Source: Phycisphaerales bacterium (lineage in GTDB: Bacteria; Planctomycetota; Phycisphaerae; UBA1845). Taken from it: 64,000 nt of DNA. The stretch lies in the NCBI GenBank assembly GCA_003597935.1, contig QZJT01000059.1, forward strand, positions 1-64,000. The letters run 5' to 3'. The translations under genes were made by a program, and so were the position numbers. The notes under the pieces were generated by a model. The model was not told where the DNA came from. It saw nothing but the letters and a program-made list of their open reading frames with translations, and made no database searches. Positions 4,018 through 53,139 of this stretch are shown piece after piece (position 1 is the first letter of the stretch; each line of letters opens with the position of its first letter).

Positions 4018-4080
4018 AGAACACGGCGGTACTGTGAACGACAATCGGAGCCGCGACCGTGAGGGAGCGGCTTCTGTGAT

Positions 4081-4130
4081 CGAATGTCGAATGTCGAATG
4101 TCGAATGTCGAATGTCGAATGTCGAATGTC
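4081..4130. repeat. Perfect tandem heptamer array, (CGAATGT) x7
   Basis: cgaatgtcgaatgtcgaatgtcgaatgtcgaatgtcgaatgtcgaatgtcgaacgg. Confidence 0.9.
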
Positions 4131-4467
4131 GAACGGCGAGAGGTAACACGAATCCGCATCCGACGCCCCGGAGGGGCGCAGGAGTGTAGCCGCGGGTGGA
4201 GCGCAGCCGCCGACAGGCGGCGCAGCGGAACCCGTGGTAGCGATCTCCTTTCCCCCCCCGCCCCGGAGGGGCGGAGGCAGCGCACGGTAGCTGTACTGCG
4301 CACCGCGCGCCGCCTCGCACGCCGGGCGGAGGCGGCACGAGACGCGGATCGCGTCGCCGGCCCGAGCTGCGCACGAAACTCGGGGCCAGATGGACCCTGG
4401 GATTCACGGCGCTTCACGCCGTCGCAGCATCAGCGAGCCTCGCCCACACAGCCGCGTGCGCGACGCC

Positions 4468-5262
4468 TCACCCACACGTCACATTTACCGGCTCCACGCA
4501 CGCGTCCGGAGCGATCAGCGTCAACTCGACCGGCCCTTCCAGGCAGCAGGTGCGGTGCTTCGCCTTCCGCCCCGCGATCGACAGTTCGATCGGCTCGCCG
4601 TCGATGCCGATGGTCAACGTCCGGCCGTCGTGGTCGCGCGAACTCAACTTGACTTTCGCGGTGAGCTTTCCGGACGGACCGCAACGCCCTTTCAACCGCC
4701 GCACCGCCTCGCACGGCACGCCGCCGACCGTCACCACGCGGATGTTGTCGAAGTTGGCGCCGAACTTCTCCGGGATGACGTTGTTGCCCTCGTTGGCGGC
4801 GCTGAACGACAGCGAGACGATTTCGCCCAGCGGCTCGCCGGTGAGGCGCCCGGGCGTGTTCACGTCCGCCTCGAGGCGCGTGCGCTGCCCGATCTGTTCG
4901 GCCAGCAGCAGGGCGAAGTCGCCGCTGGCGGCCCGTACGATCACCGCGCTGGTGGGACGGTTGCCGACGAAGCCGCCCTCGAAGTCCTCGACATCCACCG
5001 ACACCGCGAAGACCTTGTCGCCTTCGGGAAGATCAAACGTGATCAGATCCGTGTTCGGCTCCAGGTGCAGTTTCCATTCGCCGTCCTCGTTGATGATCCG
5101 CCAGCAGCATTCCTTGAACTCCAGGTCGTGCCTGAAGAACGGGTTGGTGAACTCACCGCCGTCGAAGGTCTCCACCTGTTCGGCGCCCAGGGCCGCCGGC
5201 GCCAACCCCCACGTCAAAACGCACAGACACGTCACACGACTACGCACGGCCTCTCGGTACAC
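4468..5262 (-). CDS. Secreted hypothetical protein with a conserved 85-aa C-terminal domain ending in CG (shared with the 11230-12566 protein)
   Basis: GTG start at 5262 is preceded by AGGA. Signal peptide VRSRVTCLCVLTWGLAPAALGA. The C-terminal 85 aa align clearly with the C-terminus of the 11230-12566 protein. The plus-strand ORFs at 4390-5404 are antisense shadows. Confidence 0.6.
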   Translation of the reverse strand: MYREAVRSRVTCLCVLTWGLAPAALGAEQVETFDGGEFTNPFFRHDLEFKECCWRIINEDGEWKLHLEPNTDLITFDLPEGDKVFAVSVDVEDFEGGFVGNRPTSAVIVRAASGDFALLLAEQIGQRTRLEADVNTPGRLTGEPLGEIVSLSFSAANEGNNVIPEKFGANFDNIRVVTVGGVPCEAVRRLKGRCGPSGKLTAKVKLSSRDHDGRTLTIGIDGEPIELSIAGRKAKHRTCCLEGPVELTLIAPDACVEPVNVTCG

Positions 5263-9432: not shown

Positions 9433-9999
9433 ATGTTCGCTCGCCTGCTGCTTTTGTTCACCGTCGTTCCGTTGGTGGAGCTGATGATCCTGCTGCGGCT
9501 GGGCGAGTGGATGGGCTGGCAGTCCACGCTCGGCCTGGTGCTGCTGACCGGGGTGATCGGCGCGGCCCTGGCGCGGCGGGAGGGGTTTCGGACGCTGTCG
9601 CGGATTCGGGGGGAACTGTCGCGCGGGGCGACCCCGGCCGGTGAACTGGTGGACGCGGCCATGATCTTCGTAGCCGCCGCGCTGCTGGTCACGCCGGGCG
9701 TCCTGACGGACCTGGCCGGGTTCCTGCTCCTGATCCGGCCGTGCCGACGGGGTCTGCGGGCCTGGCTGGGGCGGCGCTTCGCAGAGCGAATCAGGATCGT
9801 ACACGAGAGCAGTGTCGCCCACAGCGGCGGGTACGGTAGCGGCGGGTTCGGCGACGGCGGCTACGGCAGCAGCGAGCACCACGGCGCTGGAGCGCATAGC
9901 GGCGAGCAACGCGCCGGCGGGCAGCAAGGGGGTAGGACGCCCCGCGTCGAGATCATCGATGTCGAGGCGACGTCAAATGGAGCAACGGACACCGGGTGA
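9433..9999 (+). CDS. fxsA: FxsA family cytoplasmic membrane protein
   Basis: MFARLLLLFTVVPLVELMILLRLGEWMGWQSTLGLVLLTGVIGAALARREG matches the FxsA N-terminal signature. Gly-rich C-terminal tail. Confidence 0.8.
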   Translation: MFARLLLLFTVVPLVELMILLRLGEWMGWQSTLGLVLLTGVIGAALARREGFRTLSRIRGELSRGATPAGELVDAAMIFVAAALLVTPGVLTDLAGFLLLIRPCRRGLRAWLGRRFAERIRIVHESSVAHSGGYGSGGFGDGGYGSSEHHGAGAHSGEQRAGGQQGGRTPRVEIIDVEATSNGATDTG

Positions 10000-10024
10000 A
10001 TGGCCAGCAGGGACCTAATGGACG

Positions 10025-10203
10025 GCATGGACTCTATGGACAGTATGGACTTCATGGACAATATGGACAATATGGACTTTATAGACTCAATGGACTGACT
10101 GGACGCCGTGACTCCTGTCCATCCTGTCCATCAAGTCCATACTGTCCATAGAGTCCATGCTGTCCACGAAGCTCATTCGGCCCATGCCGCCCATCACCCG
10201 GGC
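10025..10203. repeat. Nonamer array with an ATGGAC core: about 10 direct NNNATGGAC units followed by about 9 inverted NNNGTCCAT units, giving a 180-bp imperfect palindrome
   Basis: ggcatggactctatggacagtatggacttcatggacaatatggacaatatggac ... ctgtccatcctgtccatcaagtccatactgtccatagagtccatgctgtccac. Confidence 0.85.
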
Positions 10204-11229: not shown

Positions 11230-12566
11230 CTAACCGCAGTCCACCTCCACGCCCTCGACGCAGCCGGGCGGCTGGATGAGTTGGACGCGCCGGGCGCCGG
11301 ACTGGTTGTGGAAGACACGCTTCGCCTTGCGGCCGTCGATGACGATGTCCGCCGGCTGCCCGTTGACGGCGATCGTCACCGATTCTCCATCGTGCTCGCG
11401 CGTGTTCAGCCTCACCGTGACGGTAAGGCCGCCGCGCCGGCACCTGGCTTTCAGTTTCTTCACGTGGTCGCAGGGGATGCCCCCCTCCGGCGACGTGAAC
11501 CAGGGGCGGCTGAAGGGGGACTCCAGCATGAAGTCCAGCAGCAGGCGTCCGACCTTCTCGACGCCCGACGGCGACGGGTGCGTCCCGTCGTCGCGCAGGT
11601 CTTCGCACCGCCAGATCAAGCCGTCGGATCGCGGCTTCAGGCCGTCCGCCCACAGATAGGCGCCCCAGGCCATCCAGGGCGCGGCGGCGTTGTAGTCGAG
11701 GTCTCCGGCGATCGGGTCGATCCCCCCCCCGGCCATCTGGCGGATCTGGGCCTCGACCAGCCACTTGACGGTGAAGCCCGACTCGTACGCGTACGGCTCG
11801 GGATTGAGCGGGGTGGAGGCGTACCCGGCGTAAATGCGGCTGGAATGAAAAACCACCTGCACGTTCGGATACCGCTGGTTCAGCGCCCGCGCGATGCCGC
11901 CCATGTAGCCCAGCAGGCGGAACGCGTCGGCGTCCGGGGCGGGCAGCGACACGCGCGGCGCGGCGTTCGCCACCTTGACCCACACGGCCTGCACCTGTGC
12001 TTCCGTGACGCCTTCGCGGGCCAGCCGCGTGTCGCGGACGCGGTCATAGTTCGGATCGTCCGGCGAGTCCCACGTCTGCGCGGTCTGCCCCCCGGCCGCG
12101 CCGTCCACGATCATCAGGGTGGCGTGATTCACCCGCGGATCCGCGGTCGCCTGCGCCTCGAAGCTGCCGGGCTGGCACGGATTGCCGCCGCAGAACTCCT
12201 GCGTGGTGTTCGACATCCCGATGGAGAGCAGCACGATCTTCCCGGCCGGGTCCGGCCGGCCGTCGGCATCCAGCGGCTGGACGTTCAGAGCGCGGCGGAG
12301 ACCTTCGGCGGCGTGCGGCGTCGGCGGCTCGTTCAAGCCGTCGGGGTAGAGGCCGCCCGGGTAGCGGCCCAGGTAGAGGCCGCGGCCGAGGTCGTTGACG
12401 GGAGTCAGGCCCACCGACGTACGCTCGCAGTCCGAGGCGGCGCATGGGCGGGCCGGGCCTGAGCCCAAGAGCAGCGTTGCGAATAGCGCCGCCGCAGCCG
12501 GGCGACGCACACCGCAGTGCCATTTCACTTTGAGGCGGGCAGCACAAGCACAACGCGACGTGGGCA
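11230..12566 (-). CDS. Secreted protein, possibly esterase/SGNH-like (IVLLSIGMSNT), with the conserved 85-aa C-terminal CG domain
   Basis: Signal peptide (RPAAAALFATLLLGSGPARPCAA). The C-terminal 85 aa align with the 4468-5262 protein. Upstream ORF-track extension to 12882 translates the nonamer array and is rejected. Confidence 0.6.
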
Positions 12567-12647
12567 TGGTCTGTCTCCGTGTGATGGCGCCACTGTACCA
12601 ACTCGGCCGCGACGATGGGAGAGCGAGAGTCGGATCACGCACGCGCG

Positions 12648-12840
12648 GCATGGACGGCATGGACGGCATGGACGGCATGGACAGCATGGACAGCATGGAC
12701 AGCATGGACAGCAAGGACAGCATGGACTCCGGCCGCGCCGTGGATCGTCCGTGCATTCCGTGCGGTCCATTCAGTCCATCAAGTCTATTCAGTCCATCAA
12801 GTCCATTCAGTCCATCAAGTCCATTCAGTCCATCAAGTCC
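12648..12840. repeat. Nonamer array with an ATGGAC core: 10 direct units (GCATGGACG/GCATGGACA), a 35-bp spacer, then 8 inverted units (TCCATTCAG/TCCATCAAG)
   Basis: Direct reading. Same core and direct-then-inverted architecture as the 10025-10203 array. Confidence 0.85.
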
Positions 12841-12850
12841 GTCTAGCCCA

Positions 12851-15085
12851 TCAGTCCGGGCTCCCTCCCCCAGCGGGCGCATCGTCCGGCGCCGCCATGC
12901 CCAGTTCCGCCATCAGGAACGTCCATTTCATCGCGTCCTCGCGCAGGATGCCGCGGATCGGCTTGCTGGCGCCCAGGCCGGACCGGATCAGCGTGTGGCA
13001 CAGCGCCGTCGCGCCGGTCGACTTGCCCACCGCCTGCAAGCGGGCGGCCAGCTTCCAGGCGTGCAGCGTGCCGATCTGGTCGTCGGCCTGATCCGTCAGG
13101 ATCAGCGCCGACGGGTACTCTCGCCCATCCTTGACGTTGTGTGCCGGCGACAGCCGCGCCAGGCGCGAGGCGTCCGCCGGGTCCGACGGATCGCCCAGCA
13201 GGGCGTGCAGACGGCGGGCCGCCGGAACCTGGTCGAAGCGGAGCAGATCCGCCACCGGGCCGTCGAAGACCGCCGCCGCCGCCAGTTCGGGGCGGCGTGT
13301 CATCAGCGCCAGCGCCGGCAGCGACGATACGCCGGTCCCGCCAACCGCCAGCCTCTGCGGACGGGTGAACTTGTCTTCGATCAGCTTGCGGGCCGCGGCC
13401 TCGAAATCTGAGACCGACCGCTCGACCTTCGCCCCCAGTCCGGCACGGCGCCAGTCGCGATCGCCGGTGTTGTCGCCGCGCGTGCGGGCGATGGCGATGA
13501 CGCCGCCCCGCTGCACCCACGGGATCATGGACGCGTCGAAGGCGGGTGGATCGGTCGCCGGATCCTCCTTGTAGGGTCGCAGCAGCGTCGGGTTGTTACC
13601 GTCGCGCTGAAGGTCCTTGCGGTGCACCAGTCGGATGGGGATGACCGTGCCGTCGTCGGCCCTCGCTTCGATCTCGTAGTCGGCGTAAAGGCTGGTGTCG
13701 GCCTTCACCTCCCGCTGCCAGTAGCGCTCCAGCGCCCGGTCGCGGATGTTGTAGCGGTAGTTGGCGGGCGGCGTGTCGAACGCCTCGCAGGCGATGTACA
13801 CGTCCGGGTCGTTCCAGTGACCGTGCAGGTCGGTGACCACCAAACCCGGGGGAAGAGGGATCTCCAGGATGAACTCCCCGCCCAGGGTGTACACGTGCAG
13901 TTTCGAATAGCCGTCCTCGGTGTAGTGAAGCACCAGCTTGCGGTTGGCGATCAGGAGCGACCGCAGCACCCCGCTGCGCTGCGGAATCACCTCATTCCAG
14001 CGCGCCCGGTCCAGCTCGGTGGCCGGCGTCGAGAGCAACCGTCCGCGCGGCGCCTGATCATCGGTCAGAATGAAGACCCGCCCTTCGAAGACGTCGACCT
14101 CGAAGCGGGCGTCCACGCCCTTGACCAGCGGCACGAAGCCCTGCTCCGACGGGCACGGCCGCAGGAAGACGTCGTGGCTCAACTCGTCGCGCGACGCGCG
14201 GACGATGGTGTAGAGCGTGTCCGCGGAGGCGCTCACCTCCAGGCTGGTCCGCGGGTCGTCCGCCGTGAACACGACGCGATCGCGGCCGGCCGCCCCGCCG
14301 CTGCGGTGATAGACGACGTGCTGCAGTTGCAAGTCCGTCGTCTCGAGGTCGTCGCCTGCGTCGCCCGGGCGGGGCGGGGCGCCACGGCGCACGTAATGGT
14401 AGCCGCGCTGATCCGGGTCCCACGCCAGGTAGAACGTGGACGGGCGACCCGCGGTGACGTTCTCGAAGATCCGCGTGTGGTAGGGGTTGCACACCTGCCT
14501 GGAGAGATAGACCTCGGAGGCGTGATCCAGCCCGCTGGTCAGATCGCGGATCATGACGTTGCTGGCGTCGTCACCCCTCCGCGATGTCCCGTAGGCCACG
14601 GTGGCGCCGTCCCACGTGGGAAAGGCCCAGTCGATCGAGACCGACCCGTCGCGGCTGAGGACGTTCGGATCCAGCACCACGCGGTCTTCGCCCATCACGC
14701 CGCCGGCGCGCCGGATGTAGAGCGGCTGATCCTGCAGGCCGCGGCGCTTCCAGAGGAAATACTGGCTGCCGTAACGTTGCGGCGCCGACTCCGAGTCGCT
14801 GTCGAACAGCGCCTCCAGCTCGCTGAGGACCGCCGAATGAGTGGCGGCGTAGCGACCGAGAAACTGCCGCACCTCCGCGTTCTGTGCCGCCACCCACGTG
14901 ATGACTTCCGTCGTTCCGGCCTCTTCCAGCCATTGATAGGGGTCGGCGACGCGGGCCCGGCCGGCGTCGATCGTCGCGTCCACCACCCGGGTGGCAGGGG
15001 GGGCGGCCGCCGCCGGCGCGCCGATGAGCAACGCCGTCGCCAGCACGGTGCGGTATCCTCCGATGAACTCTTCTGCACTTCGCAT
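12851..15085 (-). CDS. Prolyl oligopeptidase (S9A) family homologue, secreted; catalytic triad apparently not conserved (probable pseudoenzyme)
   Basis: DPYQWLEE N-terminal hallmark, beta-propeller plus alpha/beta hydrolase body. Signal peptide after the ATG at 15085. Canonical GGSNGG reads GGTGVS and canonical KAGHGAG reads RSGLGAS. Confidence 0.8.
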   Translation of the reverse strand: MRSAEEFIGGYRTVLATALLIGAPAAAAPPATRVVDATIDAGRARVADPYQWLEEAGTTEVITWVAAQNAEVRQFLGRYAATHSAVLSELEALFDSDSESAPQRYGSQYFLWKRRGLQDQPLYIRRAGGVMGEDRVVLDPNVLSRDGSVSIDWAFPTWDGATVAYGTSRRGDDASNVMIRDLTSGLDHASEVYLSRQVCNPYHTRIFENVTAGRPSTFYLAWDPDQRGYHYVRRGAPPRPGDAGDDLETTDLQLQHVVYHRSGGAAGRDRVVFTADDPRTSLEVSASADTLYTIVRASRDELSHDVFLRPCPSEQGFVPLVKGVDARFEVDVFEGRVFILTDDQAPRGRLLSTPATELDRARWNEVIPQRSGVLRSLLIANRKLVLHYTEDGYSKLHVYTLGGEFILEIPLPPGLVVTDLHGHWNDPDVYIACEAFDTPPANYRYNIRDRALERYWQREVKADTSLYADYEIEARADDGTVIPIRLVHRKDLQRDGNNPTLLRPYKEDPATDPPAFDASMIPWVQRGGVIAIARTRGDNTGDRDWRRAGLGAKVERSVSDFEAAARKLIEDKFTRPQRLAVGGTGVSSLPALALMTRRPELAAAAVFDGPVADLLRFDQVPAARRLHALLGDPSDPADASRLARLSPAHNVKDGREYPSALILTDQADDQIGTLHAWKLAARLQAVGKSTGATALCHTLIRSGLGASKPIRGILREDAMKWTFLMAELGMAAPDDAPAGGGSPD

Positions 15086-36512: not shown

Positions 36513-36517
36513 AAAGA

Positions 36518-36645
36518 GGTTGACGGTTGGAAGGTTGAAGGTTGCAAGGTTGAAGGTTGCAAGGTTGAAGGTTGTAAGGTTGAAGGTTGTAATGTTCTAA
36601 GGTTGTAAGGTTGAAGGTTTTGAGGTTGGAGGGTTGAAGGTCGAC
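36518..36645. repeat. Tandem array with a 15-bp period (GGTTGAAGGTTGYAA)
   Basis: aaggttgaaggttgcaaggttgaaggttgcaaggttgaaggttgtaaggttgaaggttgtaa... Confidence 0.8.
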
Positions 36646-43198: not shown

Positions 43199-43402
43199 TG
43201 TGGCACCGGCTTCCAGCCGGTGGACCCCCGCACGAATGCGGGGGCACTGCATGTGGCACCGGCTTCCAGCCGGTGTCTTCGTGTGGCACCGGCTTCCAGC
43301 CGGCGTCCTCGTGTGGCACCGGCTTCCAGCCGGCGTCCTCGTGTGGCACCGGCTTCCAGCCGGCGTCCTCGTGTGGCACCGGCTTCCAGCCGGTGTCTTC
43401 GC
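43199..43402. repeat. Tandem array of a 23-nt hairpin repeat GTGGCACCGGCTTCCAGCCGGYG with 7-nt linkers (30-bp period, 6 copies) plus one 30-bp variant unit with a CCCCCGCACGAATGCGGGGG hairpin
   Basis: Direct reading. Each unit is self-complementary (CACCGGCT-TCC-AGCCGGTG). Lies in the leader between the TPP riboswitch and thiC. Confidence 0.9.
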
Positions 43403-49821: not shown

Positions 49822-49905
49822 GCCATTCGACCTTCGACCTTCGACCCTCGACCCTCGACCTTCGACCTTCGACCCTCGACCTTCGCATTCGCCATTCGCC
49901 ATTCC
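49822..49905. repeat. Heptamer array (TTCGACC/CTCGACC x8, then CGCCATT x2)
   Basis: ccattcgaccttcgaccttcgaccctcgaccctcgaccttcgaccttcgaccctcgaccttcgcattcgccattcgccattc. Confidence 0.85.
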
Positions 49906-52773: not shown

Positions 52774-53120
52774 TCCCGGCTTGAAGGGCGGGGATCGGAG
52801 GGGGGGGGTGTACACCCGTCCTCAGAGCCCCGGCATTCATGCCGGGAGTTCCGGCGGCGTGTGATCACACGTTTCCGCTCGGGACGCGATTCTCCGAGCA
52901 ACTCCCGCCTTGAAAGGCGGGGCTCTGGGGGACAGCGCACACGCTCGCGACGATCCGCCCGCCTTGAAAGGCGGGGCTCGGGGGGACAGCGCGCACGCTC
53001 GCGAGGAGTTGGGCGCGGTGAATGGCGGGGCGCGGAGCCGGGCGGGATAACGGCGAGCCGGGCGGGATAACGGCGAGCCGGGCGGGATAACGGCGAGCCG
53101 GGCGGGATAACGGCGAGCCG
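52774..53120. repeat. Two arrays: about 45-bp units with a CCCGCCTTGAAAGGCGGG hairpin (52774-53010), then a perfect (GGCGGGATAACGGCGAGCCG) x4 array (53041-53120) that ends 20 bp before the MATE start codon
   Basis: Direct reading of the sequence. Confidence 0.85.
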
Positions 53121-53139
53121 GCCGCTACAATCTCCGCCC

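Follow-up and report, generated by a model that had tools for sequence, protein, structure and literature searches.

Two genes on the reverse strand of a 64,000-nucleotide stretch of a Phycisphaerales bacterium (assembly GCA_003597935.1, contig QZJT01000059.1, positions 1 to 64,000; hereafter the window) encode predicted secreted proteins, A and B, that end in the same segment of about 85 residues. The question raised by this locus is what such a shared C-terminal domain (CTD) does, and in particular whether it is a sorting, anchoring or secretion-recognition signal, as a preliminary description of the DNA had proposed. The CTD is a genuine sequence family not modelled in Pfam-A or NCBIfam, and its members reveal a mobile, extracellular, cysteine-clamped immunoglobulin (Ig)-like domain for which terminal placement is usual, not obligatory. 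On balance, and with somewhat better than even confidence, we read the CTD as a new family of mobile, disulfide-stabilised Ig-like accessory modules for binding or retention, and not as a dedicated sorting signal. The features of the two genes are as follows.

4468–5262, reverse strand: gene A, encoding a 264-residue secreted protein composed of an orphan N-terminal domain of about 150 residues and the CTD; TGA stop at 4468–4470.
5182–5262, reverse strand: predicted signal peptide of protein A, residues 1–27, VYREAVRSRVTCLCVLTWGLAPAALGA; cleavage site approximate.
4471–4725, reverse strand: CTD copy A, 85 residues, GGVPCEAV...VNVTCG, with the four family cysteines and a vicinal Cys-Cys pair; located by BLASTP, tblastn and hidden Markov model (HMM).
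11230–12567, reverse strand: gene B, encoding a 445-residue secreted protein whose SGNH/GDSL-like esterase-fold domain precedes the CTD.
12436–12567, reverse strand: predicted signal peptide of protein B, residues 1–44; mature end near A-A|S-D-C-E-R-T-S.
11485–12435, reverse strand: SGNH-like esterase domain of protein B, with S115, G117-M-S119-N-T and D327-G-T-H330-P invariant in a 50-sequence alignment.
11233–11484, reverse strand: CTD copy B, 84 residues, GGIPCDHV...VEVDCG, with the four family cysteines and no vicinal pair; located by BLASTP, tblastn and HMM.

In BLASTP, proteins A and B share one significant segment (A 225–309 / B 362–445), in which 39 of 85 residues are identical (46%) and 65% are positives, at E = 2e-20. 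The shared extreme C-terminal module of the preliminary description is thereby upheld, with three amendments: the alignment is not gap-free, since a gap of one residue has to be placed after RC; four cysteines, counting the terminal one, and not three, are common to both copies; and gene B extends over 11230–12567, not 11230–12566. None of the remaining BLASTP segments is better than E = 2.3, and because all of them lie above E = 2, the N-terminal parts of the two proteins are unrelated, as had been stated. The family HMM recognises copy A at E = 1.6e-31 and copy B at E = 6.6e-31; together with tblastn over all six frames, it finds exactly two CTD copies in the window. The most likely start codon of gene A is GTG at 5262, with AGGA upstream at an 8-nt spacer, and the product corresponds to P0121, which is called 19 residues shorter (245 residues). 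For gene B the start codon is ATG at 12567, with GGAG upstream at a 7-nt spacer. Protein B is 100% identical to P0001 of Joint Genome Institute (JGI) dataset 3300007352, on the 134-kb contig Ga0104756_1000044; its nearest genome-derived relative, in an uncultured Phycisphaeraceae metagenome-assembled genome (MAG), has 82% identity over the whole protein, and its closest orthologue terminates in a bare C.

Both proteins carry N-terminal segments consistent with the signal peptides assigned to them earlier. Protein A begins with a basic n-region followed by a hydrophobic core (Kyte–Doolittle 2.04 over 10 residues), which together suggest a signal peptide. In protein B, a basic segment precedes the hydrophobic core AAALFATLLL (Kyte–Doolittle 2.45 over 10 residues), and the AlphaFold2 predicted local distance difference test (pLDDT) score is below 50 for residues 1–22. 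Four orthologues of protein B (P0014, P0020, P0023 and P0053) have short classical leaders that stop just before the conserved D-C-x-R-T-S. Between leader and CTD, the N-terminal part of protein A, approximately 150 residues (4726–5181, reverse strand), has no match in Pfam, NCBIfam or PDB sequences and no second bearer among about 300 fetched proteins; this part also holds a Cys-Cys pair.

The extent of the CTD family was determined by an exhaustive search of the two-copy profile, as the preliminary description had suggested, against 1.84 billion representative proteins. At E ≤ 1e-3 the profile matches 253 representative clusters, of which 64 remain at E ≤ 1e-10 and 3 at E ≤ 1e-30. Since a profile of only two sequences retrieves a whole family, the similarity between copies A and B lies far beyond chance. 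Local HMM re-scoring was applied to 152 proteins, comprising 149 of the best 150 of the 253 matches and the orthologues P0020, P0002 and P0014. A full-length CTD is present in 138 of them; the remaining 14, long tandem Big_9/cadherin-like proteins, were caught through many weak partial matches. The exhaustive HMM search carried the analysis; in a word-indexed search the 87-residue domain gave no candidates and a 68-sequence profile only 23 short fragments. The carriers span Phycisphaerae and other uncultured bacteria.

Neither Pfam-A nor NCBIfam contains a family that covers protein A, protein B or the isolated domains, which agrees with the earlier remark that no recognised family was matched. 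When 68 diverse CTD sequences were scanned singly, none reached any Pfam gathering score; the sub-threshold Pfam/NCBIfam matches included BiPBP_C (8), Ig_like_ice (4), Big_3_5 (3) and Ca_tandemer (3). An Ntox28 match (18.8 bits against a cutoff of 25, in one of the 68 members) and a DnaJ match (E about 0.02) were rejected as noise. Among PDB sequences, there is no sequence-level relative of the CTD, the best match having E = 0.0016 over 20 residues, and no description of the module was found in literature searches on the GC-type dockerin and on C-terminal/dockerin domains of Phycisphaerae. Across Pfam-A, NCBIfam, the PDB and the literature searched, there appears to be no earlier description of the sequence family, its four- or six-cysteine signature or the exchange with dockerin-like tails discussed below. 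As a general kind, Ig-like accessory modules of secreted bacterial enzymes are very well known, and so is the fold.

The most constant elements of the CTD are four cysteines at profile columns 8, 18, 79 and 87, present in 136, 138, 134 and 138 of the 138 domains, respectively. Other near-invariant columns are P76 (136 domains), G67 (134), G37 (129), A58 (127) and L73 (125). Both window copies, each of about 85 residues, possess all four cysteine columns and the P76, G37, G67 and A58 scaffold. AlphaFold2 predicts copy A, from a 68-sequence alignment, with a mean pLDDT of 93.8 and a predicted template-modelling score of 0.82, as seven strands with a short N-terminal turn bearing the first cysteine. 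The same seven strands occupy residues 369–443 in the full-length model of protein B, with block-mean pLDDT of 89–97, so that the β-sandwich proposed earlier is borne out by prediction. Two of the cysteines flank strand 1, one just before it and one where it ends; the third lies in the loop leading into the last strand, and the fourth where that strand ends. According to these models, the CTD is a generic Ig/FN3-like sandwich augmented by a family-specific cysteine clamp, in which the four near-invariant cysteines probably form two disulfides. The only sequence lacking Cys 1 and Cys 3 together, P0258, hints at a 1–3/2–4 pairing.

The chain usually ends within one or two residues of the last cysteine, because that cysteine ends the last strand. 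The terminal dipeptide is CP in 35 domains, CG in 10, CN in 10, CD in 9 and CR, CK and CQ in 5 each, while 3 domains end in a bare C. The terminal CG highlighted in the preliminary description therefore holds for the two window copies and is no motif of the family; the protein end simply coincides with the last structural cysteine. The GRKAK motif fares similarly: it is present in both window copies, and across the family G-[RK]-K-A-[KR], like H-D-G, is only moderately conserved (H35 in 92, D36 in 84 and K/R57 in 95 of 138). A vicinal Cys-Cys pair at columns 63–64, at the end of strand 5, exists in 49 of the 138 domains, including copy A (4537–4542) and not copy B, and the two cysteines co-occur in 49 of 50 cases. 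In 29 domains with this pair there are exactly six cysteines; the pair therefore has no other partner, and may form a vicinal disulfide, bind a metal or remain as free thiols.

In fold class and size, the CTD resembles Big_9 (PF17963), Cadherin_4/5 (PF17803), BiPBP_C (PF06832) and Big_3_5 (PF16640). Tandem repeats of Big_9 proteins are caught by the CTD profile with per-repeat family-HMM E-values of 1e-4 to 1e-2, and hhalign of the CTD against Big_9 repeats gives a probability of 35.6% and E = 3.9e-4 over 58 columns, with strands B–F in register. However, the Big_9 repeats aligned here lack the four-cysteine clamp and form long tandem arrays, in contrast to the single terminal CTD. A remote link of the CTD to bacterial Ig-like domains is, on this sequence comparison, possible but unproven. 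Its structural neighbours are FN3-like modules and the carbohydrate-binding modules (CBMs) CBM56 and CBM31, with a sequence identity of only 5–20%, and Foldseek of the CTD against structures returned no match at E ≤ 1e-3.

The CTD is joined to many kinds of exported protein. Among 95 scanned members, the partner domains are Peptidase_S8 (7), reprolysin-like M12B (6), GSDH (5), Beta_helix (3), Kelch (3), M14 (2), M28 (2) and WD40-type propellers (2), in addition to the SGNH-like esterase of protein B. Names assigned by JGI include 'HAF family extracellular repeat' for some fragments, 'photosystem II stability/assembly factor-like' for two proteins and 'choice-of-anchor B domain-containing protein' for one cluster member. 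The earlier suggestion to check all carriers for signal peptides finds a hydrophobic N-terminal leader in 70 of 84 members, counted among those with a Met start and at least 120 residues before the CTD, against 10 of 84 control windows. Members without a leader look like truncated gene calls, and no sign of cytoplasmic carriers was seen among the members examined. The protein end lies within 6 residues of the last CTD cysteine in 120 of 138 members. In the others the arrangement varies: at least 10 members run on via a linker into a sorting domain of the type IX secretion system (T9SS), with the signature N-P-F-N-P ... G-[IV]-Y-[FIM]-Y-R-[LM] recognisable by eye, and Pfam confirms Por_Secre_tail downstream of the CTD in 10 of the 95 scanned members; six proteins (P0122, P0123, P0124, P0126, P0204 and the L004 protein) hold two CTD copies, separated in some by an InlB-B-repeat-like module; and P0177 runs 270 residues past the CTD. 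In P0182, P0191 and P0231, the CTD is followed by an unannotated conserved tail of about 85 residues with about 11–12 cysteines and no Pfam match, which may be another uncatalogued extracellular module. P0193 and P0196 contain D-C-N-x-N-G-x-P-D-x-C-D repeats upstream of the CTD; these short Cys-rich repeats matched the dockerin motif search, yet a dockerin reading was rejected, as they are a different Cys-rich repeat.

The esterase family of protein B provides a comparison of the CTD with other tails in the same position. This N-terminal domain of about 315 residues has 7,226 matches among the scored candidates and no Pfam model; some homologues are named 'lysophospholipase L1-like esterase' by JGI, and the named homologues of protein B are almost all from Phycisphaerae or Planctomycetota. 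The AlphaFold2 model of protein B (pLDDT 88.1) retrieves CE2 esterase, GDSL-like lipases, sialate O-acetylesterase and polyvinyl-alcohol esterase with a Foldseek probability of 1.00, although the template-modelling scores reach only 0.25–0.31 on query length. The G-M-S-N-T and D-G-T-H-P motifs agree with what is expected of blocks I and V in SGNH/GDSL enzymes, which would give them catalytic roles. Among 120 listed of more than 7,000 homologues of this domain, 60 carry dockerin-like tails of 50–65 residues that contain one or two D-x-N-x-D-G loops, 4 the CTD and 1 a hydrophobic-plus-basic tail, while 32 lack an extension; P0053 is labelled 'GC-type dockerin domain-anchored protein' by NCBI. 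Type I dockerin (PF00404) is thus found in the very C-terminal position that the CTD takes on these esterases, and the two are mutually exclusive in the sampled proteins: a two-loop dockerin is found in none of the 138 CTD proteins, and no D-x-N-x-D-G loop occurs in any frame of the window. The dockerin is a calcium-binding EF-hand helix pair, whereas the CTD is predicted to be all-β, has no sequence similarity to it and no Pfam/NCBIfam match, and lacks the D-x-N-x-D-G loops. No cohesin-like partner is known for the CTD.

The range of tails in this esterase family (dockerin-like, CTD, hydrophobic-plus-basic, a tandem second copy or none) resembles a 'choice-of-anchor' pattern. The long, often two-copy homologues P0003–P0009, which have no extension, end in V/D-C-G or V-C-Q like the window CTDs, possibly by coincidence; P0007, an extension-less homologue, derives from a Chloroflexi MAG.

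Sorting by a dedicated C-terminal signal, which outer-membrane or surface machinery would recognise, possibly cleave, and use to attach cargo in the manner of the T9SS CTD, PEP-CTERM/exosortase or LPXTG/sortase, is one alternative, and the one put forward in the preliminary description. The T9SS sorting domain is likewise a β-sandwich of about 80 residues, placed at the very C-terminus of a variety of secreted hydrolases, and the CTD is found at the extreme C-terminus in the large majority of members, on diverse exported carriers, and replaces dockerin-like and hydrophobic-plus-basic tails on protein B homologues. However, where a T9SS domain lies downstream, as in at least 10 members, the CTD is cargo and therefore not the signal, and internal and duplicated copies together with the variable terminal dipeptide point in the same direction. 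The Por_Secre_tail models (PF18962/TIGR04183) have no profile match to the window proteins or the CTD, and the T9SS tails seen here lack the CTD cysteine signature. Likewise, the CTD has no P-E-P motif, transmembrane helix or basic cluster of the PEP-CTERM/exosortase type, a single chance NCBIfam match (E = 0.12) arising among the 68 sequences. A known sorting domain is usually carried by dozens of proteins in a genome, but the CTD family is small (253 clusters among 1.84 billion representatives) and has two copies in 64 kb. The processing enzyme or dedicated transporter that the preliminary description had proposed to look for does not recur at the window, L001, L002 or L003, nor is there a recurrent machinery neighbour in these four loci. 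Of all the readings, dedicated sorting has the least support and is improbable; the anchoring or tethering part of the original proposal remains favoured.

About equally improbable is a carbohydrate-binding module that targets enzymes to polysaccharide. The fold does match CBMs, but no better than hundreds of FN3/Ig domains; the CTD shows neither a sequence-family match to CBM56 or CBM31 nor a conserved Trp/Tyr platform, the only semi-conserved position of aromatic type being H/Y/F at column 35, and many carriers are peptidases. A purely structural module, serving as a cap, spacer or folding aid for the catalytic domain without binding anything, like PPC/P-domains or FN3-like X modules, is a serious rival, although we consider it distinctly less probable than an accessory binding or retention module. 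PPC (PF04151) is a small β-sandwich appended C-terminally to secreted peptidases such as S8 and M28, and partners of the CTD also include S8 and M28 peptidases; PPC itself gives no match at E ≤ 1 for the window copies or the 68 diverse members, and to our knowledge has no four-cysteine signature. The conserved positions of the CTD are those of a scaffold only (Cys, Gly, Pro and buried Leu, Ala and Ile), its charge varies across the family, it takes a spacer position before the sorting domain in T9SS cargo, and FN3-like X modules (3pe9) as well as accessory domains of glycoside hydrolase enzymes are among its neighbours in fold. On the other hand, the CTD is attached to at least 10 unrelated catalytic folds, so that a specific intramolecular chaperone role is unlikely; the esterase homologues without any extension (32 of the 120 listed) work without it, so it is dispensable for the catalytic domain; and the mutually exclusive exchange with dockerin-like tails points to targeting.

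This exchange is the reason for favouring anchoring or tethering, since dockerin-like tails fill the same slot in protein B homologues. In the accessory-module reading, the CTD is a self-contained extracellular domain, some 85 residues long, that has been shuffled onto the C-termini of many Sec-exported enzymes. After export and oxidative folding, it would stay attached to the mature enzyme and, as a non-catalytic module, would hold it on a cell-surface partner or polymeric substrate, doing the architectural job of the dockerin-like tails in the same slot with no dedicated machinery reading it. In freshwater Phycisphaerae, M12B and M14 peptidases that bear dockerins have been suggested to assemble into a complex at the surface (PMC6461901), and the CTD is carried by these same peptidase classes; this overlap is suggestive, not evidential. 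Several observations weigh against an accessory binding role. Beyond the Cys/Gly/Pro scaffold no surface patch is strongly conserved, with H35, D36 and G-[RK]-K-A-[KR] at 60–70% or less; the net charge ranges from −6 to +6 across the family with a median of 0; and only two copies occur in 64 kb, with only one related genome locus recovered. With no conserved surface motif and a variable charge, the family gives no sign of one common ligand, and these features fit a purely structural role equally well. General electrostatic anchoring was considered on account of the basic window copies (pI 8.6 and 9.4) and rejected in view of the charge distribution of the family. A more specific proposal, that the CTD is the docking half of a Phycisphaerae surface-assembly system, a β-sandwich counterpart of the dockerin that would attach secreted peptidases and esterases to a cell-surface, 'planctosome'-type scaffold through a specific protein partner, with the clamped terminal strand as part of the interface, is a long shot, ranking barely above the sorting and carbohydrate-binding readings.

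A related-locus search gave one genome locus (the contig of P0002, from the uncultured Phycisphaeraceae MAG) and four short metagenome loci. Between and around genes A and B, the annotation of L001 lists an ATP-binding cassette (ABC) ATPase, FxsA, DUF423, gatC and a prolyl oligopeptidase; an unannotated 313-residue product beside the ABC ATPase is taken to be a permease. Further genes near A and B, read by eye from open reading frame translations, are a phytoene-desaturase-like oxidoreductase and miaA. No neighbour gene recurs in the loci of P0002 and P0137.

The G+C content is 62–70% across the window, and several tandem arrays are present. Both genes are flanked by intergenic arrays of short period. 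A perfect 7-bp array, TCGAATG x7.7, lies at 4080–4133, just downstream of gene A. Intergenic 9-bp arrays on ATGGAC are paired in inverted orientation with arrays on its reverse complement GTCCAT, at 9999–10096 and 10113–10166, and again at 12648–12727 and 12765–12857, directly upstream of gene B. Other high-scoring arrays are situated at 36517–36641 (15-bp x8.3), 43252–43401 (30-bp x5, 96% matches), 49826–49885 (7-bp TTCGACC x8.6) and 53035–53121 (20-bp x4.3, perfect).

If the CTD is only a stabilising Ig-like cap, its recognition amounts to routine domain-family bookkeeping. Cataloguing it would supply both domain boundaries and a fold for several hundred tails, now 'hypothetical', of secreted peptidases and esterases from Phycisphaerae and other uncultured bacteria. 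The exchange between dockerin and CTD on one esterase family would furthermore offer a testable handle on how exoenzymes are retained at the planctomycete surface, a subject with almost no experimental data.
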